A model generated the notes under the pieces. The model ran no database searches, had not been told where the DNA came from, and saw nothing but the letters and a program-made list of their open reading frames with translations. DNA of 32,447 bases. Origin: Candidatus Micrarchaeia archaeon (GTDB lineage: Archaea > Micrarchaeota > Micrarchaeia > Norongarragalinales > CAINOH01). Positions 1 to 32,002 of the stretch are shown piece after piece. The stretch covers positions 1-32,447 of the forward strand of contig JBHHTN010000001.1 of assembly GCA_046753405.1 (NCBI GenBank). The letters run 5' to 3'. Position 1 is the first letter of the stretch. Each line of letters starts with the position of its first letter. The position numbers were made by a program, and so were the translations under genes.

Positions 1-268
1 CTTTTAAAACCCCCATACCTTTCTTACAAACCAAAAAAACACTTTTTTAACCATTTTTTTAAAAAAAAAACACGACCCCCTCTTGAGACAATTTCCCAAG
101 CGTTTTAGAAAGCTTTTATAACATGAAAAGCAAGAATAATTTAAACAGTTTTGGAAAAACCAACTGTCAAAAACCTAAAAAGCACTACTTTAAACGGTTT
201 TTTTTAAGGACGTTTCAACACGCTTGCAATATTCATTAGCATCCCCCCCAAAAAAAAGGTGTAAACAA

Positions 269-670
269 ATGGTTCAATTCCACAAAATTTCAAAAACGAA
301 GAAAACAGGCAGCGGAGGCCACTTGCGACGCTCCAGCGACAAAGCAAAAAAGCACTTCGGGGGCTTTTTTTCAAGAACCAAGCTAATAAAAGGCGAAGGC
401 AAAAAAAGTGAAAAACGCGTTGCCTTCAAAACACTCGGCGGAAGCAAAAAAGTCGCAGCAGAATACGTTCAACACGCAAGCATCACGCAAGAAAACGGCA
501 AAAGCGTGAAAACCAAAATCAAAAACGTGGTTGAAAGCCCGGACAACAGGCACCACGCACGCGAAAACGTAATCACAAAAGGCACAATAATCGAAACCGA
601 AGCAGGAAAAGCCCGCGTGACCTCCCGACCAGGACAACGCGGAACAATAAACGCCGTACTACTAAAATAA
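269..670 (+). CDS. rps8e: 30S ribosomal protein S8e
   Basis: Lies in ORF 224..670. The product MVQFHKISKTKKTGSGGHLRRSSDKAKKHFGG... is K/R-rich with an S8e-type N-terminus. I prefer ATG 269 (AGGTG at 257-261, 7 nt upstream) to the upstream TTG at 224. Confidence 0.8.
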   Translation: MVQFHKISKTKKTGSGGHLRRSSDKAKKHFGGFFSRTKLIKGEGKKSEKRVAFKTLGGSKKVAAEYVQHASITQENGKSVKTKIKNVVESPDNRHHARENVITKGTIIETEAGKARVTSRPGQRGTINAVLLK

Positions 671-674
671 CGGG

Positions 675-680
675 TTTTTT
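675..680 (+). terminator. oligo-T tract after rps8e
   Basis: A T6 run begins 5 nt after the rps8e stop codon. Confidence 0.3.
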
Positions 681-738
681 CGCGTTAAGTCAAAACTATA
701 TAACGAGCGAAAGCAAAAAAACATACTCCGTGAGATAA

Positions 739-1989: not shown

Positions 1990-2146
1990 AAAAGCCGAAA
2001 CCTTTATATGCAAAAAAGTAAGCTATTAACAATGCAAAGAGCCGTTTTCTACAAAAACAGCTTTTTCTTTTAACGGGTTCTAAAAACGACAATAGTTCCA
2101 CAACCCAGTCTGACCAAAATTAGTTCTAAAAAAAGTGCAAAACAAA

Positions 2147-2368
2147 ATGCGCTTCAAAGTCATAAAAACAACGTCAACAGGCAACATACTGCTTTCAGGA
2201 GAAAAAAAACCCGTTGAAAAAACCACGAGGTTATACGAAAAAAACAATCAAGTGGCAATAATCCTCGAAACAATCGGAAAGGTGGAAAACCCGCTTTTCC
2301 TGGGAAAAGCAACAAACGCAAAATCAGAAAACCTCGTTGGAAAAACGCTTCAAACCAAAACTTTTTGA
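2147..2368 (+). CDS. gar1: H/ACA RNP component Gar1 (small beta-barrel protein)
   Basis: 73 aa from ATG 2147 (the track start at 2135 is GTG). MRFKVIKTTSTGNILLSGEKKP...VAIILETIGKVENPLFLGKA...LVGKTL follows the archaeal Gar1 pattern (G.v.dvfGpv..Py). It sits directly upstream of tfb. Confidence 0.6.
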   Translation: MRFKVIKTTSTGNILLSGEKKPVEKTTRLYEKNNQVAIILETIGKVENPLFLGKATNAKSENLVGKTLQTKTF

Positions 2369-2389
2369 AAATAAGGTGAAAGAAAAAAA

Positions 2390-3301
2390 ATGATGTACCA
2401 CAGCAAATGCCCCGACTGCGGCGGAAAAAAACTAGTACACGACTCAAGCAGAGGAGAAGTAGTCTGCAAAAGCTGCGGAACTGTATTAGAAGAAAACGTT
2501 GTAAGCGAAGGCCCAGAATGGAGAGCATTCGACGCCGAACAACGCCAAAGCAGGGCACGCACCGGAGCGCCCCTCAAATACATGTCTCCCAACAAAGGAC
2601 TAGTCACTGAAATCGACCAATACAACCGCGACATCCGCGGAGGAAAAATCGCTCCCTCACAACAAGCACAACTCTACAGAATGAGAAAATGGCACAAACG
2701 AGCAAGCATTTCAAACTCAATTGAACGAAACCTCGCAATCGCACTAACAGAATTAAACAGAGTAGCATCTCATTTAGGACTGCAAGAAAACGTCCGCGAG
2801 TCAAGCGCTTTGCTTTACCGCAAATGCGTCGAAAAAGGACTCATCCGAGGAAGACAAATAGAAAGCGTGGTAAGCGCGGTAATCTACGCCATCTGCCGCC
2901 AGTACGGCATCCCGCGCACACTGGACGAAATATCCAACGTAGCCGAAATACCAAAAAAAGAAATCGGCCGAACATACCGCTTGATAACACAAGAACTCGA
3001 ATTAAAAGTGCCCCTTACAAACCCGCGCTTTTACATCACGCGCTTCATCACCGCATTGAAGTTAAGCGGGCAAACCCAGGAAAAAGCAATTGAAATCCTC
3101 GACCAAGCGCTCGTAAAAGGCTTGATTTCAGGAAGAGGCCCAATGGGAGTAGCAGCAGCCTCAGTATACATTGCAAGCGTTTTAACAGGCGAAAGGCGCA
3201 CGCAAAAAGAAGTCGCAGACGTAGCAGGCGTAACCGAAGTCACCATACGAAACCGCTACCGCGAACTCAAAAAAGCACTGGGCCTGAAAGTAAGCATCTA
3301 A
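2390..3301 (+). CDS. tfb: transcription initiation factor IIB (TFB)
   Basis: 303 aa. Has an N-terminal Zn ribbon (CPDCGG...CKSCG), a B-reader/linker (EGPEWRAFD) and two cyclin-fold repeats. AAGGTGA lies about 10 nt upstream of the ATG. Confidence 0.95.
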   Translation: MMYHSKCPDCGGKKLVHDSSRGEVVCKSCGTVLEENVVSEGPEWRAFDAEQRQSRARTGAPLKYMSPNKGLVTEIDQYNRDIRGGKIAPSQQAQLYRMRKWHKRASISNSIERNLAIALTELNRVASHLGLQENVRESSALLYRKCVEKGLIRGRQIESVVSAVIYAICRQYGIPRTLDEISNVAEIPKKEIGRTYRLITQELELKVPLTNPRFYITRFITALKLSGQTQEKAIEILDQALVKGLISGRGPMGVAAASVYIASVLTGERRTQKEVADVAGVTEVTIRNRYRELKKALGLKVSI

Positions 3302-19140: not shown

Positions 19141-20298
19141 TTAAGGTTGCACCCATTCTATTTCGTAGTACTCGTACTTGCTTTTGGGCACTTGGATTCT
19201 TTTTACTCGGTAGTAGGTGATTGCTGTTTCGCGGTCGCATATTGCAAGTACGAGGTCCAAACCGAGTTTTTTCGCTTTTTGAATTGCCTGGGCAAGCTCT
19301 GCACCGCCTATTTCCTCTTCTTCTGAAAGCGCAAGCATTACGAATTTGGGCCCTCCGTTTTTAGGCGTTTCAATCTCGGCTTTTTTTCGGTGGTAAAGCA
19401 AGAAGTCAAGTTCCGCGGCAACTTCTTTTTTAACCCCTGGAATTGCCAAAATAAACGTTTTTTTAACTCCGTGGGCGACTCTTATTGCGCGGGCCCACTC
19501 CGAGATAAGAAGCTTGGCTTCGCGGGGAAATACCTGGATTACGTGTTTTGAGTGCATCCACTGCGAGGTTTCAAGGGTTGGCAAAGCCCCTGGAAAGTAA
19601 AGCCGAAAGTGCGTGCCGAATTTGAATCCTGTTTTCAGCACGAACCCGTGCAGGCGCCAGTCTTCGTACACTTCGTAAAGAGACAAAAAGTCGCTTCTGC
19701 GCCTCAATGCTTCCTCGACGAGTTTTTTGCGGTTTATGTTGAGCTTGAACTTGCAGTGCTTCATTAAAAACAGGGTTTCGTACGCGTCGAGTTTAAGGAA
19801 CTTTCCGTGCTTTTTCGCCTTGTAGGTTCCGTACTGACCAAACCAATGCTCTTCATAAATTTCCTTGCCTTCCTCATGGTCGATTATGCTCATAAGGTCG
19901 TCGGAGAAAAACAATCCCCTGCTTTTTACATTGAATTTTTTGAAGTCTCCACTTGGATATTTTATCACCGGACTTCGACCGTAGTTTTTAACGGCTTCCT
20001 TAATGGGACGCGGAATTATTCCTCGGTCGCGCCAGTCTCGAAAGCAAAAGTAGCGGGCCAAAAACTTTTTGTTGTCCTGGAATTTTTCCGCCAAGACGTT
20101 GAATGAAACCTCTTTTCCCTTAAAATTGCAGGAAGCGTTGCGCACGTCAATCAAGTATAACGCTTCCTCTGGCAAAAGCTGCAACTGTGTTTTTTTTCCC
20201 TGGTATTCGACTCCGAAAAAACCCCGGTCAAGTGCCTGCACGCTGATAAGGTCGCGCACTATTACTTTTTTGTCTTCGTACTCAAAAGAAACGGCCAT
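19141..20298 (-). CDS. endA: tRNA-splicing endonuclease, multi-unit fused form
   Basis: 385 aa. The catalytic unit is YEDWRLHGFVLKTGFKFGTHFRLY...HSKHVIQV...AHGVKKTFILAI. A degenerate unit precedes it (ARYFCFRDWRDRGIIPRP). A further C-subdomain-like segment follows it (DFLLYHRK...KFVMLAL...LVLAICDRETAITYYRV). Confidence 0.85.
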   Translation of the reverse strand: MAVSFEYEDKKVIVRDLISVQALDRGFFGVEYQGKKTQLQLLPEEALYLIDVRNASCNFKGKEVSFNVLAEKFQDNKKFLARYFCFRDWRDRGIIPRPIKEAVKNYGRSPVIKYPSGDFKKFNVKSRGLFFSDDLMSIIDHEEGKEIYEEHWFGQYGTYKAKKHGKFLKLDAYETLFLMKHCKFKLNINRKKLVEEALRRRSDFLSLYEVYEDWRLHGFVLKTGFKFGTHFRLYFPGALPTLETSQWMHSKHVIQVFPREAKLLISEWARAIRVAHGVKKTFILAIPGVKKEVAAELDFLLYHRKKAEIETPKNGGPKFVMLALSEEEEIGGAELAQAIQKAKKLGLDLVLAICDRETAITYYRVKRIQVPKSKYEYYEIEWVQP

Positions 20299-20384: not shown

Positions 20385-20837
20385 ATGTCAAAAGTGTTTT
20401 CGACAAGGGCGCAGGCTGCCCTTGAGTATATGCTGATAATAGGCGTCAGCCTTGCAATTTTGCTGCCCTTGTGGCTTTACGCGAATTCATCAATTGAGGA
20501 CACAAAGGCAAGCTTGCAGATTGCCTACGCTCGAAACAGCCTCAATAAAATCGGGGAAGCTGCTGACGCTGCTTTTGTTGAAGGGCCCCCTGCAAAGTTC
20601 TCCCTTTACCTTACTTTCCCCCAGGGAATTGAAAGCACTTCGGTTTCAGGACGGGAAGCTTCAATGCGGCTTAACTTGCTGGACCGGCCAGGATCGGTAT
20701 CCGACGTTTTCGTTTCAACAATCGGAAACATGACAGGAACGCTTCCAACGCAAAGCGGGCCTTTGAGGCTCTTTGTCAAAGCAGAGTACAATTCGACAAA
20801 CGGAGAGAACTACGTTAACATCACCGAAACCCCTTGA
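20385..20837 (+). CDS. prepilin-like protein with class III signal peptide
   Basis: MSKVFSTRA|QAALEYMLIIGVSLAILLPLWLY has a basic residue and small residue at -2/-1, Q at +1 and E at +5, then a hydrophobic helix. 150 aa. Confidence 0.75.
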   Translation: MSKVFSTRAQAALEYMLIIGVSLAILLPLWLYANSSIEDTKASLQIAYARNSLNKIGEAADAAFVEGPPAKFSLYLTFPQGIESTSVSGREASMRLNLLDRPGSVSDVFVSTIGNMTGTLPTQSGPLRLFVKAEYNSTNGENYVNITETP

Positions 20838-20878
20838 AATAAACGCGGAGATAAATTTTGGAAACGAAGGCTTTCTCG

Positions 20879-21289
20879 ATGAAATTTCTTGGAACGCGGG
20901 GACAACCCTCAGTTGAAATGATTACGATGGTAAGCTTGCTCGTCATAATCCTAGCCGGCTTTTCACTTGTCGCCTTCCAAAACTACAGCGAGTTTGTTGT
21001 TGACCGTCAATTCATTGAAGCGAAGGAAGTTGCAAGGCAAGTTGCAACGGAGATAAACACTGCAATAAGCGTTGGCTCCGGGTACGGCAGAATGTTCGCC
21101 TTGCGCGAAAGTTTTTACGGAGGCGAAGACTACGTGGTGAGAACTCTTCCAAACGATCAGGTGGTTGAAATAACTTGGGGTTCCTACAGGTACACCGTTC
21201 CCATTCTTTCATCAAACGTTGAAGAGAAAACGCTTGTAAACGGTAACAACACTATTTCTAATCAGGGAGGTCTGATAAAACTTGCGTGA
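20879..21289 (+). CDS. prepilin-like protein with class III signal peptide
   Basis: MKFLGTRG|QPSVEMITMVSLLVIILAGFSLVAF (RG, Q+1, E+5). I prefer ATG 20879 to the TTG at 20858. Confidence 0.7.
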   Translation: MKFLGTRGQPSVEMITMVSLLVIILAGFSLVAFQNYSEFVVDRQFIEAKEVARQVATEINTAISVGSGYGRMFALRESFYGGEDYVVRTLPNDQVVEITWGSYRYTVPILSSNVEEKTLVNGNNTISNQGGLIKLA

Positions 21290-21890
21290 GAGCAAACGCG
21301 GACAAGTTTTCACAGGAGACTTTGTTTTAAGCGTATTCGTGTTCTTGATCATTGTAACCGTCGCAGGCGTTTTTTGGAACAATTTAAACGACAGCATAAC
21401 TGCTTCCGAAAACCGCAAAGACTTGGAGTTTGCAACACTTGTTGCATCGGAGTCCCTTATACGCACGTCAGGCAACCCCTTCAACTGGAGCAACGACAAC
21501 CTTAGCGCGGTAAAAAGCATCGGGCTGGCCGTCAACGCTCAAAACCAGTCTGCCGACAGCCACATCATCAACGCAAGCAAGGCAGTAATGCTTGTCAGGT
21601 TAATGGAAGACAATTACAGCTTCGCTAAAAATGTTTTAGGACTCGGAGCTTTTGAATTCGGGTTTTCAATAACAAACAAATCGGGACAAGTGGTGAACGC
21701 CTCGTGCGAAGTGGGGTGCTGGTGCGGAAGCCCTTGTTGGAAGTCGCTTAATTACTCGACGTTTGACAGCGTGCAGGCAGACGACGCGGCAGTAATCAGA
21801 CGTATTGCGATAATAGACGTTGCAATTGAAGGCGACTTTAGAACAAGGAAAGTCGTGAACGTAAACGTGTTTGGGTGGAAAGAACCGTGA
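21282..21890 (+). CDS. prepilin-like protein with class III signal peptide
   Basis: M(TTG)RESKRG|QVFTGDFVLSVFVFLIIVTVAGVFW. GGGAGG at 21265-21270 lies 11 nt upstream. It overlaps the previous gene by 8 nt and carries several N-X-S/T sequons. Confidence 0.65.
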   Translation: MRESKRGQVFTGDFVLSVFVFLIIVTVAGVFWNNLNDSITASENRKDLEFATLVASESLIRTSGNPFNWSNDNLSAVKSIGLAVNAQNQSADSHIINASKAVMLVRLMEDNYSFAKNVLGLGAFEFGFSITNKSGQVVNASCEVGCWCGSPCWKSLNYSTFDSVQADDAAVIRRIAIIDVAIEGDFRTRKVVNVNVFGWKEP

Positions 21891-24800
21891 AGAAAGGGTT
21901 GGTGTTTACCTTGGACGCTATTTTCGCGCTGCTTATACTGCTTGCAATTATTCCGCTTGTTGAAAACGCGTACGTGCAAAGCGTTTCCCCATCGCTCATA
22001 CACGAACAGTTGCACTTGCAGTCGGAAGACGTTTCAAACGTTCTTGTGAAAATAAAAACCGGGGAAGCACTCAACGAATCAACGGTACTGCAACAGCTAC
22101 TGACAGAGCAAAGAATAACTCAAGACGACATGAGCCTGCCGTTGATTGAAGTCATAGGAAGATTCTGGGCAGCCAACACCACTGCGGACCTGGCAATAGC
22201 CCGCGACATAATTCAAGACGTTGTTGGAAATCTCACGCCGAAAAGCCTGGGTTGGGCAACTTACTTCGACCAAGACCAGATTACCGCGAACTTTTCCCCG
22301 CTTAATCTTTCGTTGTACGGCACTGCGGCAAGCAAAAGAATAGTTTCAGGGTTTGAAAAAAACAAGACATTAAGCGGCTGCATTGCGCGAACGTTTCTTG
22401 AGAGGGCAATAGGAAAACAGGCGGCCAAGTACTACTTCTTCGGAGGATTCATAGGACAAGGAAACGTCTCTGCAACAGTCCGCGGCGTTCCCTCGGATGC
22501 CAACATAAGTTTGATGTATCTGGAAGCAAACTTCGGCGACAACTTCACGCTGTACGTCAACGGCAACCACTGCGCTAATTTAAGCAAAAGCCCGGGAAAC
22601 TATTCAGTTGACGCGTTCAGCTTAAACTCTTCAAGTTACCCGCAGTGCATTGGAAACGTTTCCAAAGGAGCAGACAACAATTTTTCAATAAACTTTTCAG
22701 GAAATGATTTGGAAAAACAGTTCATCGGCGGCGGGTTCATAAAAATCGTGTACGACACCGGGCAGTTGTCTTACACTCAGGCAAACCTTTCACGGTATTA
22801 TTTTCCAGGGGTAAGCGGAATAATAAACAACTACGATTCATTCTACGTTCCTGGAAACGTAACCAACATAACCGCGTTCATTGACTACTACAGCAACTAC
22901 AGCGTTTACTTCAACGTGGGCAACACCACGATTTTCAACCGTTCAGGAAGCACCTCAAGACAGAACTTCACCATAACCAACGCGTCTTTTGCCTCAAACT
23001 TCAGCGACGACTACTCTCAACTTGGAGGCCAAAGCGTGCCAATAAGAATCGGCATCGACCCCTTGGCGTTTGTAAACAGTACAACAATAGGAAACGCGGA
23101 CGTCATTCTAATCACCGACTTGTCGGGAAGCATGTCCTGGCGCATTGACTCCAACACTGCAAGCGGAGCAAACACGTCTTGCACCGAATGCTCGGACTCC
23201 TGCATCAACGCGTCCAACGTGGTCCGCATAAACAAGGCAAAATGCGTTGACTTGGAGTTCGTAGACATTATTCTGAACAACAGCGGAAACCGCGTAGGAC
23301 TCACGGGCTTCAACACCAACGCCGACACGTCTTACACTGGGCTTACCGCGGACAAAACAAGTCTGCAAAGCCAAATAAACGGGTACTCCGCAGGCGGGGG
23401 AACATGCGTTTGCTGTTCAATAAACCGCGCGTACGACTTGATCCAAGAGCCGTACTACGAAACCCTTGTGCCAAGGCAAAATGAGTGGAGTTACAACACG
23501 TCTTTTGCAACAAGCGCGCCTTGGAACGACGCCGAAGGAGACAACTGGACAACCATGAACTACAACGACTCATTGTGGTCGAAGGCAAACGCGTCATTGG
23601 GCTTTGGAGGAGTTGACAGCGACATCGGAAACAACCTCGTCTTGTTGTCAAACGAACAGCTCAACGCATCCGAATACGAATTGGCATACGGAAGCGTCAT
23701 ATCGGGAACCTTGGGGGACACAAACAAGTCGGATGGCACAAACGCCCTTGTTTTGAACGAAAGCCTGGTTCTTCCCCCTGTGTATTACTACAATGAAAGC
23801 GAGGGACAGTCGTCAACAACTTCTACTTCCTGGCAGGAAAAAACAAGACTTGATTTTTCACCGATAGACGGCAACTACTTGATTTTGGTTACCGCTGAAG
23901 TGCAAGGCTCTTCCAGCTCCCGCGACGTACAGCTTAGAATGACTATTGACGGCCAAACACACTCCGAAATCAACTGGGAACCGGACATATCCTCAAACTG
24001 GGAACCTTTCGTTTCCCACAAACTACGTTCACTTGACTCCTCTTCACACAACATTACAATAGAATACTCCTCAGAGAACTCCGGACAAACTACGAGAATA
24101 CGCAACGCGAGAATAAGCGCAATAAGACTTGACGAGTACGTCTTGAACGAATCGGAATCCGAAAGCACGTTAACTTCCACGTATGCTGACAAAACGAATG
24201 TTTCCTTCACACCTTCAAGCGACGGGTACTACCTTGTAATTGCGACAGCGGAAGTAAAGGCGGGTTCAACCACATCCAGCATCGGCGCAAGGCTTCAAAT
24301 CGGAAGCACCACTTACGACGAGGTAAACATTGAAGGCGAAAACAGCAACGAGTACAAACCCTTCGCCTCGCATTCAATTTACCAGTTTACTGCAAGTCCT
24401 CAAACAGTGCACCTGCAAGCATTCTCCGAAGGAGGAAGTGCAAGCAAAAGAATAAGACGCGCGAGAATTTCGGTTGTGCGACTGACCGACTTTCTGAATT
24501 ACCAGTACCAAGAAAGCCTTTCCCGCACAACAACAACTTCAACCTCGTGGGTGAACAAAACAAGTCTGTCATTTACGCCTGCAAGTGAGGAAGACTACTT
24601 GATTGTTGCAAGCGCGCAAATCGATTACCCGACCCCGTCAAACTCCCGTTATCCAATGGCCAGAATGCTCGTCGACGGCGTCGAATACGGGTATATGCTC
24701 TGGGGCCTCTCAGACTCAAGCGACAAGTACAACTTTTTCTCAACAAAAAACATTTCGCTTTCCGCCTCACCACACACAATTACCATTCAATACCGAACAC

Positions 24801-26689
24801 GTTCTTCAAGCTACGCAATTGGAATGTCAAACGCGAAAATCTCCGCAACGCGCGGGGGAACAACGCAGCAGTACCGCCTTGAAACCCGCTTCAACTCAAC
24901 AACCCTTTCAGATGACCAGAACGTCAGTTCAATAAACGCCACCATAAGGTTCAATTCAACGCAGGCAGACAACTATTCCATAAGGTTATACGACTATTCA
25001 TCGAACGCTTGGAACACCCAGTACTGTTCAACCGCACAAGTAGTACTGGCAAACCAATGGACAACAATGGACTGCAACGTCACTGCAAACGCTTCAAACT
25101 TCGTTTCCGCAAACGGAAAAGTGCAGGCAAGCCTAAACGCGCAAGCCTCTTCCGCCTACAACAACGTAAGCATAGACTTCGTGCAGTACTACCTTGAAAC
25201 AACAAGCGGAAACTACTACTTCAGAAAAAACTTTTCAGTTGCAAACGCATCCGACATCATTTACCTTAACCTCTCAGTGTACTCTGACGACCGAGCAGAA
25301 ATTTACTTAAACGGCGTGCTTGTAGACAACGACACACAACCACACCCCGCCTCGTACTGGAACCGCCAAATAAACGCGTCTTCAAGCTACCTAAACACCG
25401 GAGAAAACGTTTTGGCCGTCAAATTACGCAACCACGATTCAACAAGCGCAAAATTTGACTTGGAACTCAACGCGTCAAAAAGAAGAAACAAGTACATAAT
25501 CGTGATGACCGACGGAATCACTGGCTATTCTTGCGCTTCAAGCGGCTGCAGCGGCAACAACACCGCAGGAACATGGGATTGCGGAGGCGGCTCCGGAGAC
25601 TGCACCGGAAGCCAGTGCGACTGCGCCATTGACAACGCGAACTACAGCGCGTGCCGTGCAAGAACACTGCCCTCAACGCTTTACTCCGTGGGCTTTGGAC
25701 CCATTTCAACCTGTCAAAACGGAAACCGAACCCTTCAAAACATCGCCACCTGCGGGGGAGGGTCGTACTATTCAAGTTCAAACGCGTCAGAACTTCAAAA
25801 CATTTACAGGAGCATTGCAGAACAAATAGTAAACCAAAGCATCGTCTTCAGAACGCAAACAGCAAACGTTTCAGCAAACGTTTCAAACATGACTTTGTAC
25901 CCGTCTTCTTACCTTGAATTCTCCTATCAGCCTTTTGCACAACCCCCCCAATACAGGCAGATAAAGCTGTCCGTGGAAACCGACGCTTTTGCAAACTGCA
26001 CTGGAAGCTTTTTTGTTCCCCCAGCAGACAGCATTGAAGAAGCAAAAATCACATCCTACTCCGAAGACTACTGGACAAGCATTGTAATAGCACGCAACGG
26101 TTCCAACCCGTGGGGCAGTGCGTTCAACCTTTCAGTTTACGGGCAAAACTACACGTTCCTGGGAGACCCGTTTGTAGTAAACATTCCAACAAACCTTTTG
26201 AAAACCAACGCCACCAACTACGTTAACATTTCAACCGGCGCAGACTCTGCAAATACAAGCTCACAGTGTTCAACCAATAACAAGGCCATTTACTCCTACC
26301 GTATCACCCTCCAGTCATTTCTCTCGCCGGTGTTCGCAAATTGTACCGGAAGAAACGTAAGCGTTTACTTCGACAAAGACAACGACGCAGTCTCCGACGG
26401 AAGCGTAAACATTGCAATCGGACAAACACCAGTAAACACAACCCTTGTAACACCCGACCAATTAACCCCCTCAACAAACGCTGCCGACTACGCACTACTG
26501 CAACTTTTAGACTCGCTTAACTTCGACAACCAGACAAACAGCATTCAAACAAGCACAGGTAGATCAGGAACAAGCCAAAACCCGATAGACTTGGAAATTC
26601 CAAGCACTCTGAAAGTTGACACAACCGTACTCTCCGACATTCCCTACATGTGGGGCCCTGCGGAAATACAAGTAAGCATGTGGACTTGA
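21875..26689 (+). CDS. giant (1604 aa) prepilin-like surface protein with an interrupted vWA/MIDAS domain; candidate filament-associated adhesin
   Basis: The N-terminus ...KKG|LVFTLDAIFALLILLAIIPLV is a prepilin-type signal. An alternative GTG at 21887 forms a GTGA overlap with the upstream stop. The vWA motifs are DLSGSMS (aa 415-421), VGLTGFN and GGGT (T510), then IIVMTDG (aa 1208-1214), LYSVGFG and GGGSYYSSSNASELQNIY. Confidence 0.85.
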   Translation: MERTVKKGLVFTLDAIFALLILLAIIPLVENAYVQSVSPSLIHEQLHLQSEDVSNVLVKIKTGEALNESTVLQQLLTEQRITQDDMSLPLIEVIGRFWAANTTADLAIARDIIQDVVGNLTPKSLGWATYFDQDQITANFSPLNLSLYGTAASKRIVSGFEKNKTLSGCIARTFLERAIGKQAAKYYFFGGFIGQGNVSATVRGVPSDANISLMYLEANFGDNFTLYVNGNHCANLSKSPGNYSVDAFSLNSSSYPQCIGNVSKGADNNFSINFSGNDLEKQFIGGGFIKIVYDTGQLSYTQANLSRYYFPGVSGIINNYDSFYVPGNVTNITAFIDYYSNYSVYFNVGNTTIFNRSGSTSRQNFTITNASFASNFSDDYSQLGGQSVPIRIGIDPLAFVNSTTIGNADVILITDLSGSMSWRIDSNTASGANTSCTECSDSCINASNVVRINKAKCVDLEFVDIILNNSGNRVGLTGFNTNADTSYTGLTADKTSLQSQINGYSAGGGTCVCCSINRAYDLIQEPYYETLVPRQNEWSYNTSFATSAPWNDAEGDNWTTMNYNDSLWSKANASLGFGGVDSDIGNNLVLLSNEQLNASEYELAYGSVISGTLGDTNKSDGTNALVLNESLVLPPVYYYNESEGQSSTTSTSWQEKTRLDFSPIDGNYLILVTAEVQGSSSSRDVQLRMTIDGQTHSEINWEPDISSNWEPFVSHKLRSLDSSSHNITIEYSSENSGQTTRIRNARISAIRLDEYVLNESESESTLTSTYADKTNVSFTPSSDGYYLVIATAEVKAGSTTSSIGARLQIGSTTYDEVNIEGENSNEYKPFASHSIYQFTASPQTVHLQAFSEGGSASKRIRRARISVVRLTDFLNYQYQESLSRTTTTSTSWVNKTSLSFTPASEEDYLIVASAQIDYPTPSNSRYPMARMLVDGVEYGYMLWGLSDSSDKYNFFSTKNISLSASPHTITIQYRTRSSSYAIGMSNAKISATRGGTTQQYRLETRFNSTTLSDDQNVSSINATIRFNSTQADNYSIRLYDYSSNAWNTQYCSTAQVVLANQWTTMDCNVTANASNFVSANGKVQASLNAQASSAYNNVSIDFVQYYLETTSGNYYFRKNFSVANASDIIYLNLSVYSDDRAEIYLNGVLVDNDTQPHPASYWNRQINASSSYLNTGENVLAVKLRNHDSTSAKFDLELNASKRRNKYIIVMTDGITGYSCASSGCSGNNTAGTWDCGGGSGDCTGSQCDCAIDNANYSACRARTLPSTLYSVGFGPISTCQNGNRTLQNIATCGGGSYYSSSNASELQNIYRSIAEQIVNQSIVFRTQTANVSANVSNMTLYPSSYLEFSYQPFAQPPQYRQIKLSVETDAFANCTGSFFVPPADSIEEAKITSYSEDYWTSIVIARNGSNPWGSAFNLSVYGQNYTFLGDPFVVNIPTNLLKTNATNYVNISTGADSANTSSQCSTNNKAIYSYRITLQSFLSPVFANCTGRNVSVYFDKDNDAVSDGSVNIAIGQTPVNTTLVTPDQLTPSTNAADYALLQLLDSLNFDNQTNSIQTSTGRSGTSQNPIDLEIPSTLKVDTTVLSDIPYMWGPAEIQVSMWT
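23783..24859 (+). repeat. three tandem divergent ~120-aa protein repeats inside the giant ORF
   Basis: Units are aa 637-756, 757-875 and 876-995. Each begins with [YL].ES....(T)STSW..KT.l.F(S/T)P...g.YL(I/V)(L/V/I).(T/S)A(E/Q)(V/I) and ends with ...h.it(I/L)(E/Q).....s.....i(R/S)NA(R/K)IS..R. The similarity is at protein level only and the DNA has diverged. Confidence 0.7.
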
Positions 26690-26694
26690 AAAAA

Positions 26695-27708
26695 ATGAAA
26701 AACAACAAAACCTTAATGGAAAAACGCCGCGGAGTTTTTTACTCTGTGATAACCCTCATGCTTCTTGCACCCTTAGTTGCCTACTCCTTGTTTTACCTTG
26801 AAACCACTCAAACAAACGTCAAAGAAGTAAGCGTAAAAATACGCGCCGACGAACTATCACACTACACTGAAAGCGCGGAATTGGACCTTGAACGATTCAT
26901 GCGCATCTCTTCCAAAAACGCGTTGATTGCCCTTGTAAAATACGAGGAAGACCACAATGCAAGCGTTTCAAACGCATCATGCATACTCTCCTCATTGTCG
27001 TACTACGGCAACGTTTCAAACCAGTCTTGCACCGGAACAACGCTTTCTGCAAACATTTCGCTTCCCACCAACAACACTTTCCTCCTTTATTGGATAAACA
27101 GAACAGTGACCGCCGGAGCAAAATTCGGTTTCAACACCAACATTTCACTGCAAAACGCGTCTTTCAACATGAGCAACAGCTTCAACGTAAGCTATACGCT
27201 TGTAATGCAGATCAATTCGACAGAAAAAAGCAACCTCATGAACTTTTCAAAAACAGTAAGCAAAACAATCAACAGCTCCATAATCAACCTGGACGACCCA
27301 TTGTTCCTCTCCAAAACACAAGGCTTAATCCGCCGAAGCATAACAACAAGCAACGCGACCCAAGGAGGAACAAACCTCTCAGCGTTCGTACGCGGAAAGT
27401 ACTACCGCTCTTCCGAAAACTCCTCCAGCTTCTTAGACCGCCTCGAAGGCAGAACGCGCCTTTCCGGAAAATACGGAAACACAACCGGAATTGAAACCTT
27501 CGTATACGGCCCGGAACTCGAATCATACGACTTGCAAGTCAAAAACCAGTCGTCAATAGACTTCCAATACTTCAACGAATCCCTGCCAATAGGACAAGGG
27601 TGCACAATAAACGAAATGTCATGCGACGAGTTCTGGTGGTTCAAAATGGATTCATCAACTGCAAACAAGTACGGCGTAACACCAAACTGCACGAAGTGCC
27701 CAACATAA
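26695..27708 (+). CDS. prepilin-like, sequon-rich secreted protein
   Basis: MKNNKTLMEKRRG|VFYSVITLMLLAPLVAYSLFY. ATG 26695 lies 6 nt after the giant ORF stop. It has about 20 N-X-S/T sequons and a C-terminal 4-Cys motif (CTINEMSC...CTKC). Confidence 0.6.
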   Translation: MKNNKTLMEKRRGVFYSVITLMLLAPLVAYSLFYLETTQTNVKEVSVKIRADELSHYTESAELDLERFMRISSKNALIALVKYEEDHNASVSNASCILSSLSYYGNVSNQSCTGTTLSANISLPTNNTFLLYWINRTVTAGAKFGFNTNISLQNASFNMSNSFNVSYTLVMQINSTEKSNLMNFSKTVSKTINSSIINLDDPLFLSKTQGLIRRSITTSNATQGGTNLSAFVRGKYYRSSENSSSFLDRLEGRTRLSGKYGNTTGIETFVYGPELESYDLQVKNQSSIDFQYFNESLPIGQGCTINEMSCDEFWWFKMDSSTANKYGVTPNCTKCPT

Positions 27709-27762
27709 AAAGAAGGCATTTAATAACGAAAAAGCAGTGAACTAAAAAGAAAACAAAAAAAA

Positions 27763-28578
27763 GTGGGTTCAAACCAAATGCCGCCTGCAACAAAAGAAGA
27801 CGTTGAAACCGTGATAGACCGCCTCTACGACTACGTGAAAATTAACAAACACGTGAAAGCCAAAGAAGCCGCAGGCGCCCTGGGGCTGCCCTCCACACAA
27901 GTCGAAAAACTCGCAGTATTACTTGAAGAAAGCAACCTAATCAGAATACGCTACTCTCTGAGAGGAATTGAACTTATAGCAGCCGAAGCCCAAAAAGTAA
28001 AAAAACAAAAAATAACATCCGAAAAAGAGAGCGTGTTGCATCAAAGCGCCCGCTTGTTGGAACAAGACGTGATGAAATCAGAAAACGTCATGCAATTCAT
28101 GGAACGCGACATCCTGCGCAGGCTTGCACAGGCCGAAAACATAATAGACGAATTGGAACGAAAAGACTCGTTCTCACTGGAAGACGTAAAATTTTTGCAA
28201 AAAGAAATAGAAACAATAGAATCACAAATGCAACACTTCAGCTCCGAAATAGCCGTTCTTAAAAAAACAGAAAACGACTTCGAGGAAAAAATTCAACACT
28301 TCAAAAACAACATTCAGCAACTAGAACACGACAGCGAAAAACGCAAAAAACCCTCACCACAACTGCTCGCTCCACTTGTGAGGCTCATCCAAAAAATAGC
28401 AGACGCAATTTCAACCGCGGTAAATGCGAAAAAACCAAGACCAGAAAACGCACTGCCATCCGAATCAACCCCCCTCTTAACACAACACACAGAAAAACAA
28501 GAAAGAAAACCCAAAAAAACCAAGGCTAAAAGAAAACGCGCTAAAAGGCAAAAAAACAAGAAAAAAGTGAGTAAATGA
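27763..28578 (+). CDS. wHTH-like N-domain, long coiled coil and polybasic C-tail protein (function unknown)
   Basis: The N-terminus DVETVIDRLYDYVKINKHVKAKEAAGALGLPSTQVEKLAVLLEESNLIRIRY looks winged-helix-like. The central roughly 130 aa are heptad-like and E/K/Q-rich. The tail is KPKKTKAKRKRAKRQKNKKKVSK. Its stop overlaps the ATPase ATG as ATGA. An alternative ATG lies at 27778. Confidence 0.6.
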   Translation: MGSNQMPPATKEDVETVIDRLYDYVKINKHVKAKEAAGALGLPSTQVEKLAVLLEESNLIRIRYSLRGIELIAAEAQKVKKQKITSEKESVLHQSARLLEQDVMKSENVMQFMERDILRRLAQAENIIDELERKDSFSLEDVKFLQKEIETIESQMQHFSSEIAVLKKTENDFEEKIQHFKNNIQQLEHDSEKRKKPSPQLLAPLVRLIQKIADAISTAVNAKKPRPENALPSESTPLLTQHTEKQERKPKKTKAKRKRAKRQKNKKKVSK

Positions 28579-30071
28579 ACGTCCTTGAAAAGTACGGCAT
28601 TCAAAGCGAGGGAATAATCGCAGACATAATCATAAGTGAAAAACCCGAAGAATACGTAAACACCTACGAACTGAAACACACGCGCGTAAAACAGGCAACC
28701 AACGTCGTATTGGACTACATGAAAGAAAAAATCATCGACGCTATAAACATAAAACTATCAGAAATGATGGACCCGCGAGAGAACGAAAACGTCAGAGAAA
28801 GAATCGCCGAAAAAGCCCGTGAAATAATCAAGCAAGAACTTGGAGGGCTGTCAAAACAAGAAGAACACGTGATAATAGGACGACTACTTCAGGAAATGAT
28901 GGGCTTAGGCGAAATGGAACTCGTTCTTGCAGACGAAAAACTGGAAGAAATAGTCATAAACAGCGCAAACGAGCCTGTGTGGGTCTACCACAAAAAACAC
29001 GGCTGGCTCAAAACAAACCTCATGCTAAAAAGCGAGGAACAAATACACAACTTTGCCTCAATAATAGGACGCAAAGTAGGAAAACAAATAACCACCCTCG
29101 ACCCGTTAATGGACGCCAACCTCTTAACCGGAAGCAGAGTCAACGCCACCCTCTTTCCCATTTCAAGCAAAGGCAACAGCATGACCATCAGAAAATTCCG
29201 AAAAGACCCTTGGACAATAATCAACTTCATCGACCCTGCAATAAACACGCTCAGCGTGGAGGCAGCAGCCCTGTTTTGGACCGCCATCCAATACGAACTA
29301 AACATCCTAGTAGGCGGCGGAACCGCAAGCGGAAAAACCTCGTTTCTAAACGCTATTTTAGTGTTCACCCCGCCCAACCAGCGCGTCATCTCCATAGAAG
29401 ACACCAGGGAACTGACTTTACCCGACTTCCTTCACTGGACCCCAATGGCAACACGACAACCAAACCCCGAAGGAAAAGGCGAAGTCAGCATGCTTGACTT
29501 AATGGTAAACTCCCTGAGAATGAGGCCCGACAGAATAATACTTGGAGAAATCAGAAGAAAACGCGAGGCAGAAGTATTATTCGAAGCAATGCACACCGGA
29601 CACTCCGTTTATTCAACCCTGCACGCAGACGAAGCCTCACAAGTAAGAAGCCGGCTCATAAGCCCGCCAATTGAATTGCCTGAAACAGTGATAAGCGCCC
29701 TCCACCTAATATCCGTGCAATACCGGCAAAGAAGAACAGGAATAAGACGCACCTTCGAACTCACCGAAGTCTTACCCGACGAAAACGGAGTGAGCATGAA
29801 CACAATCCACCGCTGGAACGCTCGAACCGACAAACTCGAAAAAGTAGGCGAGTCAATAAGAATAACAAACGAACTGACACTGCACACCGGAATGACAATA
29901 AAGGAAATCAGAGCGGAACTCACTGAAAAAGAAACCATTCTATCCCAAATGCTAAAACAAAAAATACACGACGTCAACTCAGTAGGCCGCGTAATCGCCG
30001 CGTACTACCGCCAACCAGACAAAGTGAGCGAGCTTGCCGCAAAAGGAAAAAGCCTCATGAAAATAGCATAA
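28575..30071 (+). CDS. type IV filament assembly ATPase (FlaI/ArlI / TadA / VirB11-GspE superfamily)
   Basis: 498 aa. Has Walker A (VGGGTASGKTSFLNA), an Asp box (SIEDTREL), Walker B (RPDRIILGEIR) and a His box (GHSVYSTLHA). Confidence 0.92.
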   Translation: MNVLEKYGIQSEGIIADIIISEKPEEYVNTYELKHTRVKQATNVVLDYMKEKIIDAINIKLSEMMDPRENENVRERIAEKAREIIKQELGGLSKQEEHVIIGRLLQEMMGLGEMELVLADEKLEEIVINSANEPVWVYHKKHGWLKTNLMLKSEEQIHNFASIIGRKVGKQITTLDPLMDANLLTGSRVNATLFPISSKGNSMTIRKFRKDPWTIINFIDPAINTLSVEAAALFWTAIQYELNILVGGGTASGKTSFLNAILVFTPPNQRVISIEDTRELTLPDFLHWTPMATRQPNPEGKGEVSMLDLMVNSLRMRPDRIILGEIRRKREAEVLFEAMHTGHSVYSTLHADEASQVRSRLISPPIELPETVISALHLISVQYRQRRTGIRRTFELTEVLPDENGVSMNTIHRWNARTDKLEKVGESIRITNELTLHTGMTIKEIRAELTEKETILSQMLKQKIHDVNSVGRVIAAYYRQPDKVSELAAKGKSLMKIA

Positions 30072-30084
30072 AGATGTTTTCGAA

Positions 30085-30972
30085 ATGAGTCAAAGAATTC
30101 CACTAAGCATTCTTCCGACAAAGGTCCTGCTAAACTTCTCCCAAAAATTCATAAGCGCGGGCAACTACGTCCGCAACCTATCGCCAACCCTCGAAGAAGA
30201 CCTCGTACAGGCACGCATACGAATTTCAAGCAGGGAATACGCATCAGCAAGCACGATAAACGCGGCACTTTACACCGCGATATTTGCATTTCTCGGCTTT
30301 GCAATAACAAACAGAGTAACCGACTTCAAAAGCCCCGAACAAGCCCTCGCAACCGGATTGCTGTTGGGACTAGTAATAGGAGCGGGAATGCTCCTTACAA
30401 CAATATTCTACCCAAAAATAACTGCGATGCGAAGATCGCGGGAAATAGAACGCGAACTCATACCCGCAACAAGACAACTTTTAATCGAATTAAAATCAGG
30501 AGTCCCGCTTTTCAACGCCATGGCAAGCGTAAGCATAGACTACGGAAAAGTCTCAAACGAATTCAAAGAAATAACCAAGAAAATAAACAGCGGAGTCCCC
30601 GAGTTAGACGCCTTGGCCGATGCAACGCGCGAAAGTCCTTCAAAGCAATTTAGAAAAGTCCTCTGGCAAAGTTCAAACGCCCTCAAAGTAGGCTCCAACG
30701 TTGCAAACGCGCTTGAGGGAATACTCAAAGAACTTGAAAATGAAAAAATATCCCAAATACACAAGTACGGCCAGGAACTCTCCCCCTGGACAATGATCTA
30801 CATGATGAGCGCGGTAATCCTACCCTCCCTTGGAATAACCATGATGATAGTCATAAGCTCCTTTCTGAGTATAAGCATACCAAAAATAATCCTGCCGGCA
30901 ATACTCGCACTACTCCTTGGATTCCAAATATTCTTCATAAACTTCGTTAACACCAGAAGACCGGCGATATAA
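30085..30972 (+). CDS. T2SS-F domain platform protein (TadB / FlaJ N-half-like)
   Basis: 295 aa with a single T2SS-F-type helical cytoplasmic domain (ELIPATRQLLIELKSGVPLFNAMASV...ALEGILKELENEK) flanked by TM segments. Confidence 0.85.
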   Translation: MSQRIPLSILPTKVLLNFSQKFISAGNYVRNLSPTLEEDLVQARIRISSREYASASTINAALYTAIFAFLGFAITNRVTDFKSPEQALATGLLLGLVIGAGMLLTTIFYPKITAMRRSREIERELIPATRQLLIELKSGVPLFNAMASVSIDYGKVSNEFKEITKKINSGVPELDALADATRESPSKQFRKVLWQSSNALKVGSNVANALEGILKELENEKISQIHKYGQELSPWTMIYMMSAVILPSLGITMMIVISSFLSISIPKIILPAILALLLGFQIFFINFVNTRRPAI

Positions 30973-30973
30973 C

Positions 30974-32002
30974 ATGCACCATGTCTACCTGCAAATAACC
31001 TCGCTTCTGCCACGATCTGCAACTGCCAAAATAAAAAAACTAATGGTGCAAAGCGGAATAGACAGCTTAAGCGCACGCACCTACCTAGGGTTTACCATAT
31101 TCTTTGCAGTTTCAATAGCTCTCATCGTATTCTTCCTCTCCCCTTTCGTCATAAAAGACGCGCACCTGGTACTACTGCTAAGCGCAGGCAGCCTTGCAGG
31201 CATCCTCGGCACAACCTACCTCTTACTCTCCTTGAACGTAGACTCGCGCTCAAGAGAAATAGAAGAATTCCTCCCAGACAGCCTTCAGTTGATTTCATCC
31301 AACATACGCGCGGGAATGACCCTTGAAAACGCCATTTGGAGCGCCGGCAGACCCGAGTTTGGACACTTAAAAGACGAAATACGCAAAGTAAGCGCGGACA
31401 CCTTCGGGGGAAAAAGAATAGAAGACGCGTTAGACAAAATGACAAACCGCGTCAACTCAAAAATAGTGCAAAGAACAATCAAACTCATAACAGAAGGCAT
31501 ACGCCTCGGAGGAGAAATGGCCCCGCTTTTAGACGAAGTTTCAAACGACATAAAAAGCACCCAGCAACTGCAAAAAGAAATAATCACAACAACAACAACT
31601 TACGCGATATTCATAACATTCGCCGCAGTAGTAGCCTCCCCCCTACTGTTCTCCGTTTCAAGCTTCTACAGTCAAATGAACGAAGAACTACTCGGAAAAC
31701 AACTAGAACAAAGCCAGAAAACCGACTTTTCAAGCCTTCCCTCCTCCGGCATACCCTCAATAGGCCTTGGAAAAAAAGGCGCCAACCCCGAAGAAAAAAT
31801 AAGCTCAGAGGAAATACGCCAATTCTCCTTCAGCGCAATAGCAATAACAAGCTTCTTCGCCGCCCTAATCCTAAGCACTATGACCCGCGGAAGCGCCAAA
31901 GAAGGCCTAAAATACGCATTCATATACGCAGCAATAGCAATTGTAATATACACAACAATCCTCGGACTGCTATCAGGCGCCCTAGGAGGCATAATTAGCT
32001 AA
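30974..32002 (+). CDS. T2SS-F domain platform protein (TadC / FlaJ C-half-like)
   Basis: 342 aa with a single T2SS-F domain (FLPDSLQLISSNIRAGMTLENAIWSA...LLDEVSNDIKSTQQLQKEI) and TM segments. The ATG is 1 nt after the upstream stop and in a different frame. Confidence 0.85.
   Translation: MHHVYLQITSLLPRSATAKIKKLMVQSGIDSLSARTYLGFTIFFAVSIALIVFFLSPFVIKDAHLVLLLSAGSLAGILGTTYLLLSLNVDSRSREIEEFLPDSLQLISSNIRAGMTLENAIWSAGRPEFGHLKDEIRKVSADTFGGKRIEDALDKMTNRVNSKIVQRTIKLITEGIRLGGEMAPLLDEVSNDIKSTQQLQKEIITTTTTYAIFITFAAVVASPLLFSVSSFYSQMNEELLGKQLEQSQKTDFSSLPSSGIPSIGLGKKGANPEEKISSEEIRQFSFSAIAITSFFAALILSTMTRGSAKEGLKYAFIYAAIAIVIYTTILGLLSGALGGIIS

Follow-up and report, generated by a model that had tools for sequence, protein, structure and literature searches.

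In Caulobacter crescentus, the TadG orthologue CpaL is a minor-pilin-like protein of the Tad (type IVc) pili, where predictions place it at the pilus tip together with two small minor pilins; its MIDAS (metal-ion-dependent adhesion site) is formed by D160, T162, S164, T470 and D515, and Tad pili themselves are thought to be derived from archaeal pili (PMC12607857). A second relevant protein, PilB of the Streptococcus sanguinis type IV pili, is a modular pilin in which a class III signal is combined with a vWA adhesin module (PMC8179133). The adhesins of sortase-assembled pili likewise present a vWA domain with inserted arms at the pilus tip, and their domains are nested, with D1 and D2 being non-contiguous (PMC7893114). 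In archaea, a 2016 census of type IV pili mentioned vWA proteins of the regulatory ArnB type alone, and literature searches found no description of the DPANN family examined in this study or of archaeal vWA pilins.

The stretch of DNA analysed here (the window, 32,447 nt) belongs to a Micrarchaeota-like (DPANN) archaeon, a tiny and symbiotic organism, and contains an ORF with a GTG start that encodes a giant pilin-like vWA protein (Table 1). When the structural, comparative and functional parts are taken together, the best explanation, and a likely one, is that the product of this ORF is a pilin-like surface protein of modular build. Its vWA head would have a complete MIDAS (D415, S417, S419, T510 and D1213) and, at the alpha3-to-beta4 turn, ~680 residues of nested domains that break the chain. 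Confidence in the structural and comparative part of this explanation is high. The region from 23093 to 25830, in which a sequence-only reading of the window had recognised a split vWA domain, corresponds to aa 407-1319 of the giant protein.

Table 1. Features of the giant gene and its surroundings in the 32,447-nt window.
Feature	Position	Strand	Basis
Upstream: three small pilin-like genes (150, 143, 202 aa)	20385..21890	+	[KR]G then hydrophobic N-terminus
Giant pilin-like vWA protein (1604 aa)	21875..26689	+	ORF list, translation, homologues, sequon count
Class-III-signal-like N-terminus, MERTVKKG/LVFTLDAIFALLILLAIIPLV	21875..21964	+	Read from sequence
vWA N-terminal half (aa 405-525), beta1-alpha1-beta2-beta3-alpha2-alpha3	23087..23449	+	Motifs, Pfam, model, invariant columns
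MIDAS D415, S417, S419	23117-23131	+	In vWA N-terminal half
MIDAS T510	23402-23404	+	In vWA N-terminal half
Jelly roll, N-terminal part (aa 526-587; W538, W558, W568; ...YNDSLWSKANASLGFGGVDSDIGNN)	23450..23635	+	Invariant Trp, model
Linker (aa 588-635), shared with P0001 up to aa 620	23636..23779	+	Comparison with P0001; pLDDT drops here
Three tandem repeats (~118 aa each)	23780..24853	+	Smith-Waterman vs shuffles
GH114_assoc-like beta-sandwich (aa 994-1108)	24854..25198	+	PF14741, model, conservation
Jelly roll, C-terminal part (aa 1109-1203; GNYYFRKNF...SDDRAEIYLNG...YWNR...AKFDLEL)	25199..25483	+	Invariant residues, model, Foldseek
vWA C-terminal half (aa 1204-1322), beta4-alpha4-beta5-alpha5-beta6-alpha6, Cys-rich beta4-alpha4 loop	25484..25840	+	Motifs, Pfam, models, alignment
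MIDAS D1213 in beta4 IIVMTDG	25511-25513	+	In vWA C-terminal half
Downstream pilin-like protein (352 aa), …KRRG/VFYSVITLMLLAPLV	26650..27708	+	Translation
Type IV filament assembly genes as block	28575..32002	+	Pfam, NCBIfam
FlaI/TadA-family ATPase, type IV filament assembly	28575-30071	+	Pfam T2SSE 1.2e-30
Two T2SSF platform proteins	30085-30972, 30974-32002	+	Pfam T2SSF 6e-16 and 1e-12

In a class III signal peptide, a short basic leader with a final Gly precedes approximately 20 hydrophobic residues. The giant protein begins with a short basic leader ending in Gly and then a hydrophobic stretch, a fit made by eye, and this motif is kept across the family (consensus KGxxFxLDAxxA in the family alignments). 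Its N-x-S/T sequons number 74, compared to 30.3 +/- 4.8 in shuffled sequences, an enrichment that fits an extracellular glycoprotein, and its C-terminus (...PAEIQVSMWT) reads without an LPXTG sorting signal. Scans of Pfam and NCBIfam returned no pilin or class III signal match for the giant protein, and a body of ~1570 residues would be very bulky for a filament subunit. In archaea, class III signal peptides are also present on non-filament proteins, such as the sugar-binding proteins of Sulfolobus. The missing pilin match, the bulk and the non-filament examples would suit a protein of unchanged architecture that is a membrane-anchored surface adhesin or envelope protein, using its class-III-like N-terminus as an anchor only and being loosely linked to the assembly genes. 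We regard this as a possible but rather doubtful interpretation, since the giant gene is located in a type IV filament gene cluster and the nearest structural relatives of the protein (see below) are pilus-tip proteins. The small genes upstream have weak Pfam matches to Class_IIIsignal and DUF7287 (the NCBIfam scan gave no pilin matches), an equivalent three-gene set precedes homologues P0001 and P0007, and a syntenic gene of 335-411 aa is found 3' of homologues; the whole gene cassette, in which the giant gene is accompanied by three small pilin-like genes and a further pilin-like one, is kept in distant relatives. In addition, the giant gene adjoins the ATPase and platform operon both in the window and in five other loci (L003, L005, L007, L009 and L011), and synteny with filament genes was seen in L003 and in Micrarchaeota loci. 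Some homologues, e.g. P0007, have no adjacent ATPase operon, an observation in favour of the membrane-anchor interpretation. The NCBIfam families FlaI and TadA match the ATPase below their cut-offs, and no prepilin peptidase (Peptidase_A24) gene is present within the 32,447-nt window, although one may lie elsewhere in the genome.

The vWA motifs were all found in the giant ORF at the residues given by the sequence-only reading, with DLSGSMS (aa 415-421), VGLTGFN (474-480), GGGT (507-510) and INRAYDLIQE (516-525) in the N-terminal half and IIVMTDG (1208-1214), LYSVGFG (1269-1275) and GGGSYY...AEQI (1294-1318) in the C-terminal half. The DxSxS motif closes a hydrophobic strand beta1 (ADVILITD415-L-S417-G-S419), T510 stands just ahead of the helix 512-523, and IIVMTD1213G forms the strand 1205-1212. 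That reading had expected an ordinary Thr-to-TDG spacing of about 30 residues, which is indeed the rule among contiguous relatives (typically 29-31 aa, with a full range of 29-47 aa, and nearly always exactly 30), compared to 703 aa between Thr510 and Asp1213. In the AlphaFold model of the native segment (946 residues), pLDDT is above 90 in both vWA halves, and the elements follow the canonical order beta1-alpha1-beta2-beta3-alpha2-alpha3-(insert)-beta4-alpha4-beta5-alpha5-beta6-alpha6, with the chain leaving the domain at the C-terminal end of alpha3 (aa 512-523) and re-entering it at the N-terminal end of beta4 (aa 1205-1212).

This topology allows a prediction of where the insert lies with respect to the MIDAS. 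The MIDAS of vWA folds is located atop the central sheet, where the parallel strands have their C-terminal ends (PMC8179133); the alpha3-to-beta4 turn should therefore be on the opposite face, roughly 20-25 A from the metal site, the length of one helix or strand. A loop location beside the MIDAS, as put forward by the sequence-only reading, would instead let the insert present, cap or gate the metal-dependent ligand site. It is true that the insert falls between two MIDAS residues in sequence, that inserted arms flank the MIDAS of RrgA, GBS104 and PilB, and that parts of such a large, multi-domain insert could reach round the domain. However, the chain exits only after a full alpha3 and returns at the start of beta4 through linkers of 2-3 residues, on the face that vWA topology places opposite the MIDAS; in CpaL, the analogous beta-rich insert has been described as pointing away from the MIDAS; and genuine MIDAS-face inserts, which follow the TDG strand, occur in a separate class of relatives. 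A location beside the MIDAS is thus unlikely.

The two halves are predicted to assemble into one Rossmann-like fold, and the models support the proposal of one single vWA domain with a complete MIDAS, the chain of which is split by ~680 residues. In the native protein, the Pfam family VWA_2 scored 22.5 bits against a cut-off of 27 bits and covered profile positions 2-91 of 107, all within the N-terminal half. Two independent incomplete or decayed vWA remnants, or a complete vWA in one segment with unrelated distal motifs, might produce such a sub-threshold match, but either arrangement is very improbable. With the insert removed, the VWA_2 score rose to 36 bits over positions 2-106 of 107, the C-terminal half filling exactly the profile positions missing from the N-terminal half, and PF00092 (VWA) reached 32 bits against a cut-off of 23.8 bits. 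Furthermore, both halves align colinearly with 48 contiguous-domain relatives at 34-53% identity, and the D, S, S, T and D of the MIDAS are invariant columns in these and in 33 split relatives, so that the split vWA pattern is not due to chance. Since Foldseek could not bridge the 680-residue gap in the 946-residue native model and matched half of the vWA, an artificial joined construct lacking the insert was modelled (pLDDT 92.5, pTM 0.90). Its top matches were the minor pilin PilB (TMq 0.70), Mfa5, SpaC, PitA and the vWFA domain of LapA (TMt 0.79), and its vWA fold matches were full-length (246-336 aligned columns); the family profile also matches PilB, Mfa5, GBS104 and RrgA by sequence. In a MAFFT alignment (A1) that combined contiguous with split relatives, the TDG strand of the short proteins was matched to an 'SDG' within the query insert; A1 was dropped for modelling, and a second alignment (A2) was built from split relatives only.

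The insert, with its junctions at ...LIQE/PYYE... and ...NASK/RRNK..., is itself nested. Its outer layer is a galactose-binding-like jelly roll, attached to the vWA core through the short linkers mentioned above and split between DIGNN587 and GNYYFRK1112 by a linker, three tandem repeats and a GH114_assoc-like sandwich. Both parts of the jelly roll have pLDDT above 90 and contain residues that are invariant in the 33 site-A relatives (those with an insert at the alpha3-beta4 site), namely W144, W164 and W174 in the N-terminal part and F726, N752 and N784 in the C-terminal part, and the two parts are contiguous in relatives P0038 and P0053. Foldseek matched the fold weakly (E ~1e-5) to GH35 beta-galactosidase and to the sugar-binding jelly rolls of GH2 enzymes; the low TM-scores of these matches are due to the large size of the model. 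The GH114_assoc-like sandwich scored 24-29 bits with PF14741 (cut-off 22 bits), has pLDDT of 75-87 and is kept in P0001, P0002, P0004 and P0028. A putative third level of nesting, in which aa 588-620 would complete this sandwich, was tested, and the score did not rise.

The three repeats (aa 636-753, 754-871 and 872-993) resemble one another with pairwise z of 17-31 compared to shuffled sequences, while a BLAST self-comparison of the insert returned the identity match alone and showed no repeats. They have a weak Pfam match to CBM60, no significant family match and pLDDT below 50 in the AlphaFold model; P0121-P0130, which are separate, small surface proteins of archaea, also contain the repeat module. 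No significant match was obtained when the rejoined jelly roll and the relatives' cassettes were scanned with Pfam. By its position and by comparison with relatives, the three-repeat block appears to be the innermost, swappable cassette of the protein.

The search for relatives identified 179 homologues of the giant protein in DPANN archaea, and the family is large, with 517 representatives at E <= 1e-30. Among the best 120 homologues, 53 have a contiguous vWA domain (Thr-to-Asp distance 29-47 aa), 41 carry an insert of 146-764 aa at the alpha3-beta4 site (site A) and 21 carry an insert after the TDG strand (site B). An independent survey of 150 representatives at 50% identity yielded 72 contiguous, 33 site-A and 24 post-TDG proteins and one with both inserts. 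Overall, about a quarter of family members have inserts at the alpha3-beta4 site, ranging from 146 to 872 residues. These surveys show that the vWA insertion is a family-wide polymorphism (contiguous, site A or site B) and that the site behaves as an insertion hot spot. Many members are 'hypothetical' in databases because the split pushes the vWA below the Pfam threshold. The closest relative, P0001, is encoded in a syntenic locus; its two flanks are 60% and 55% identical to those of the giant protein, but the sequences are unrelated over aa 621-994, where its innermost module differs from, and bears no similarity to, the three-repeat cassette. The comparison shows a replacement of the cassette. 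An artefact or selfish element (misassembly, gene fusion or intein), for which the one specific indication is that similarity to P0001 ends abruptly within the insert, has a negligible probability and was rejected, since the reading frame is open throughout, the same split recurs, across many samples and assemblers, in 41 of the best 120 homologues and 33 of the 150 representatives, the gene order is shared by the 1.3-Mb contig of P0001, Pfam scans detected no Hint or intein domain, and the insert boundaries coincide with folded jelly-roll strands. The nesting of the insert and the family-wide polymorphism had both escaped the sequence-only reading.

The giant protein is probably a pilus-associated multivalent adhesin. 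Its class-III-like N-terminal helix would place it within a pilus or at the pilus tip, along with the small pilin-like proteins encoded nearby, as for PilB and CpaL/TadG. The vWA head may bind an acidic ligand via a metal ion, while the inserted lectin-like modules would emerge on the side of the domain opposite the MIDAS and provide additional, variable binding sites, probably directed at glycans; exchange of cassettes at the hot spot could then retune the choice of host cell or surface for attachment of the archaeon. We consider this functional part of the explanation to have roughly even chances of being correct. More tentatively, the vWA head could be a fixed scaffold in which two sites are hot spots of insertion, namely the alpha3-beta4 turn and, beside the MIDAS, the beta4-alpha4 loop; at these sites lectin-like modules would be nested up to two or three levels deep and swapped even between close relatives, forming a cassette system that sets host or surface recognition by obligate episymbionts. 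If so, cassette type should track host or habitat. Little is known about the ways in which DPANN archaea locate their hosts and stay attached to them; given its size, its pilus gene clusters, its resemblance to pilus-tip adhesins and its swappable lectin-like cassettes, the family offers concrete candidates for host-recognition determinants.

Several described pilus proteins resemble the giant protein to differing degrees. PilY1/PilC of type IVa pili is similarly large and contains a vWA domain, and it is a tip-associated adhesin and mechanosensor acting with a set of minor pilins; however, PilY1 is not a pilin, it has a C-terminal beta-propeller carrier domain, and no homology to the giant protein was detected beyond the vWA fold. 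The vWF-type domain of Mfa5, the type V pilus tip adhesin of Porphyromonas gingivalis (PDB 6TNJ, 6TO1), ranks among the best matches by fold and by profile, although its pilus system and secretion route differ; we know of no large insertion at its alpha3-beta4 turn. The best fold match is PilB (PDB 7B7P; TMq 0.68-0.70), which is also a sequence-profile match across the whole vWA module (E = 5e-9). In contrast to the giant protein, PilB is a bacterial protein of 420 residues with no additional N- or C-terminal domains, and it has two short 'arms' on the MIDAS face rather than a large domain insertion. The sortase-pilus adhesins RrgA, GBS104, SpaC and PitA share a vWA with a MIDAS and were recovered as fold and profile matches, but they have LPXTG signals and isopeptide Ig-like domains, whereas the giant protein is archaeal and has no LPXTG. 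The sequence-only reading had regarded the arrangement as unlike that of described pilus proteins, but CpaL is a published precedent for a split vWA, and it also shares a pilin-like N-terminus and a full MIDAS with the giant protein (PMC12607857). There was no Pfam Tad or TadG match to the giant protein and no sequence family link to CpaL. In CpaL, approximately 180 aa forming two beta-barrels split the domain at residues 203/384, after the DxTxS loop and before the Thr, while the giant protein is split between the Thr and the Asp by ~680 aa in nested layers. A split vWA was therefore already known, and the present protein adds another split site and a larger, nested insert. In the sortase-pilus adhesins the vWA is the innermost guest of the nesting; the giant protein presents a clear case of a vWA acting as the host, not the guest, in a multi-level nested insertion.

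Every vWA motif that a sequence-only reading had listed for the giant pilin-like protein was found at its assigned residues (see table). The MIDAS residues T510 and D1213 lie 703 residues apart; the same reading took about 30 as the ordinary Thr-to-Asp spacing, as is the case in contiguous relatives (29-47 aa, nearly always 30), and proposed a single vWA domain split by ~680 residues. Pfam, homology, structure prediction and fold search agree on such a single domain, so that the assignment of the two halves to one predicted vWA domain is strongly supported. In the native protein, Pfam VWA_2 recognises no more than aa 411-525, equivalent to profile positions 2-91 of 107, and the C-terminal half alone matches only the end of PF00092 (positions 127-172). 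With aa 531-1200 removed, VWA_2 reaches 36 bits over positions 2-106 of 107 and PF00092 reaches 32 bits (cut-off 23.8 bits). The joined halves are colinear with 48 contiguous-vWA relatives (34-53% identity), D, S, S, T and D-G being invariant columns of the alignment, and the same MIDAS residues are invariant in 33 relatives sharing the split.

The AlphaFold model of native aa 395-1340 exceeds pLDDT 90 over aa 402-594 and over about 1014-1329. Its predicted order, beta1 (408-415), alpha1, beta2, beta3, alpha2, alpha3 (512-523), the insert, beta4 (1205-1212), alpha4, beta5 (1267-1274), alpha5, beta6 and alpha6 (1304-1321), is that of a canonical vWA domain. An artificial construct joining the halves without the insert was modelled with pLDDT 92.5 and pTM 0.90, and Foldseek matched it to vWA domains along its entire length. 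Pilus adhesins came out on top, namely PilB of S. sanguinis (TMq 0.70), Mfa5, SpaC and PitA, with the LapA vWFA also among the best (TMt 0.79), and the family profile also picks up PilB, Mfa5, GBS104 and RrgA by sequence.

Coordinates of features in the giant protein, the window and the loci of relatives
Feature	Residues	Nucleotides (strand)	Remarks
Giant ORF		21875..26689 (+)	1604 aa, GTG start
DLSGSMS	415-421
VGLTGFN	474-480
GGGT	507-510
Cys cluster T-C-V-C-C	510-514	23402-23416	family consensus TCICC
INRAYDLIQE	516-525
Outer jelly roll, N part	526-587		carries W538, W558, W568
Conserved stretch inside jelly roll	588-635
Region unrelated to P0001	621-994	23735-24856	P0001 (locus L003) counterpart aa 610-1047
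Three tandem repeats, ~118 aa each	636-753, 754-871, 872-993		pairwise z = 17-31 vs shuffles
Beta-sandwich	994-1108		above Pfam threshold for GH114_assoc
Outer jelly roll, C part	1109-1203		GNYYFRK..., SDDRAEIYLNG, YWNR, AKFDLEL
IIVMTDG	1208-1214
Cys-rich beta4-alpha4 loop	1215-1262	25517-25660	seven Cys
LYSVGFG	1269-1275
GGGSYY...AEQI	1294-1318
tRNA intron endonuclease		19141-20298 (-)	385 aa
Coiled-coil protein		27763-28578 (+)	271 aa, Lys-rich tail
High AT skew		1-3000, 27000-30000 (+)	0.41-0.44
Relative with site B insert, L005		2751-6302
Relative with site B insert, L007		3350-6952
Relative with site B insert, L009		3029-6652
Relative with site B insert, L011		3707-7231

The sequence-only reading had also placed the insert beside the MIDAS, where it could gate ligand binding, a reading that the analysis does not support. 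The MIDAS forms atop the sheet, where the parallel strands have their C-terminal ends (PMC8179133). In the model, the chain enters the insert after a complete alpha3 helix and comes back where beta4 begins. As judged from topology, the insert would therefore emerge on the opposite face, the one that also carries the N- and C-terminal connections of the domain itself. The true MIDAS-face site is the beta4-alpha4 loop (site B below), occupied in this protein only by a 34-residue Cys-rich loop. This loop adjoins the MIDAS, and a conserved Cys cluster directly follows the MIDAS Thr; the two are candidates for disulfides or a second metal site.

The insert consists of nested domains. In the model, only three residues link alpha3 to the first beta-strand of the insert and two link the insert's last beta-strand to beta4. 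The two parts of the outer jelly roll are invariant in the 33 relatives and form one unbroken stretch in relatives like P0038 and P0053. By Foldseek the modelled jelly roll matches jelly rolls of the galactose-binding type from GH35 beta-galactosidases and from GH2 enzymes. Between DIGNN587 and GNYYFRK1112, the jelly roll is itself interrupted by three elements: the conserved stretch, the three tandem repeats and the beta-sandwich. The repeats were modelled poorly (pLDDT below 50) and had no significant family match in the Pfam scan.

The closest relative, P0001, whose locus is syntenic and lies on a 1.3-Mb contig, shares 60% identity over aa 9-620 and 55% over aa 995-1604. It replaces the intervening innermost region with a different, propeller-like module, which looks like a cassette exchange within a conserved scaffold. 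The three-repeat module recurs (up to 46% identity) as the body of separate small archaeal proteins of 390-650 aa (P0121-P0130), where it falls in no Pfam family; a class-III-like N-terminus is present in some of them (e.g. P0121, MRRHLKKDKRG|LSNIIVVV...). This recurrence in separate proteins indicates that the innermost cassette is mobile among surface proteins.

Presence of the insert is polymorphic across the family, whose members are named by their sources as Micrarchaeota, Aenigmarchaeota, Woesearchaeota, Nanoarchaeota, Parvarchaeota and Altiarchaeota. With the contiguous member P0007 as query, 517 cluster representatives (50% identity) scored E <= 1e-30. Two samples, the 120 best matches to the giant protein and the 150 best representatives for P0007, were sorted into classes by the distance from Thr to Asp and that from Asp to beta5. 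The vWA domain was contiguous in 53 of the 120 and 72 of the 150; the insert was at the alpha3-to-beta4 turn (site A) in 41 (inserts of 146-764 aa) and 33 (177-872 aa), and after the TDG strand (site B) in 21 (Thr-to-Asp about 30, with 211-771 aa inserted) and 24. Both sites were occupied in none of the first sample and one of the second, and 5 and 20, respectively, were unresolved or partial. Site B is thus a second insertion hot spot, on the MIDAS face; its carriers include P0005, P0010, P0014 and P0075 (Thr-to-Asp kept at 30 aa), and P0151 carries both inserts. Inserted content varies: P0050 carries a CUB domain (5e-8), P0061 a jelly roll of the BetaGal_ABD2 type, and other members diverse unclassified modules nested at two distinct jelly-roll points. 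Site B inserts are mostly W-G/BNR-like propeller repeats (precomputed PF14870 match). The split leaves the vWA domain below the Pfam gathering score (22.5 versus 27 bits for VWA_2), and several split relatives (P0001, P0034 and P0038) have no precomputed Pfam domain and are labelled 'hypothetical protein'; the family is systematically under-annotated.

Three small genes lie upstream of the giant gene and one downstream, and all five proteins begin with [KR]G and then a hydrophobic stretch; this five-gene set is kept in distant relatives. Further downstream come the genes for an ATPase of the FlaI/TadA family and for two T2SSF platform proteins. The ATPase shares 59-69% identity with its counterparts in Candidatus Micrarchaeota MAGs, where the site B form is the common one next to the same operon. 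A predicted coiled-coil protein with only weak FlaC_arch and BLOC1_2 matches is encoded after the pilin-like genes and before the ATPase (a 316-aa gene takes its position in L003); it may serve the pilus machinery as an accessory or regulatory subunit. The window is archaeal, with genes for TFIIB, FttA, a proteasome subunit, Trm1 and a tRNA intron endonuclease. The latter has two N-terminal-domain stretches and one catalytic domain, an arrangement similar to the multi-unit endonuclease reported for ARMAN-type (Micrarchaeota/Parvarchaeota) archaea, which fits the best matches of the ATPase. Two regions of the window have very high AT skew, far exceeding the remainder, with negative GC skew.

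The giant protein contains 74 N-x-S/T sequons, compared to 30.3 +/- 4.8 in composition-preserving shuffles, as expected of an archaeal extracellular glycoprotein; their density per 100 aa peaks at 6.2 in the N-terminal domain and is lowest, at 2.5, in the vWA N half. Sequence comparison and modelling together show a predicted intact vWA/MIDAS head whose chain departs at the alpha3-to-beta4 turn for ~680 residues of nested beta-sandwich modules of lectin-like character; the insertion hot spot is polymorphic within the family, and the gene is linked to pilus genes. By analogy with proposals for PilB and CpaL, the N-terminal helix may bring the protein into a type IV-like pilus, or to its tip, together with the small pilin-like neighbours. 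The MIDAS would bind an acidic group of the ligand, the inserted modules would add variable, probably glycan-directed, binding sites, and cassette exchange could retune attachment specificity.

The closest precedent is Caulobacter CpaL, a TadG orthologue, in which the split precedes the MIDAS Thr rather than following it and the insert is about 180 rather than about 680 residues (PMC12607857); no sequence-family link between the two was found. In RrgA, GBS104 and PilB, the insertions on the MIDAS face are short arms (PMC8179133, PMC7893114), and in nested adhesins of the RrgA type the vWA domain is instead the guest (PMC7893114). No description of this archaeal family or insertion site was found in the one literature library searched, which is no proof of novelty. 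Pilus-associated adhesins with a split vWA domain are an already known kind; what stands out here is the nesting depth, the exchangeable cassette and the hot spots found throughout the family, and these may be relevant to how DPANN archaea recognise their hosts.
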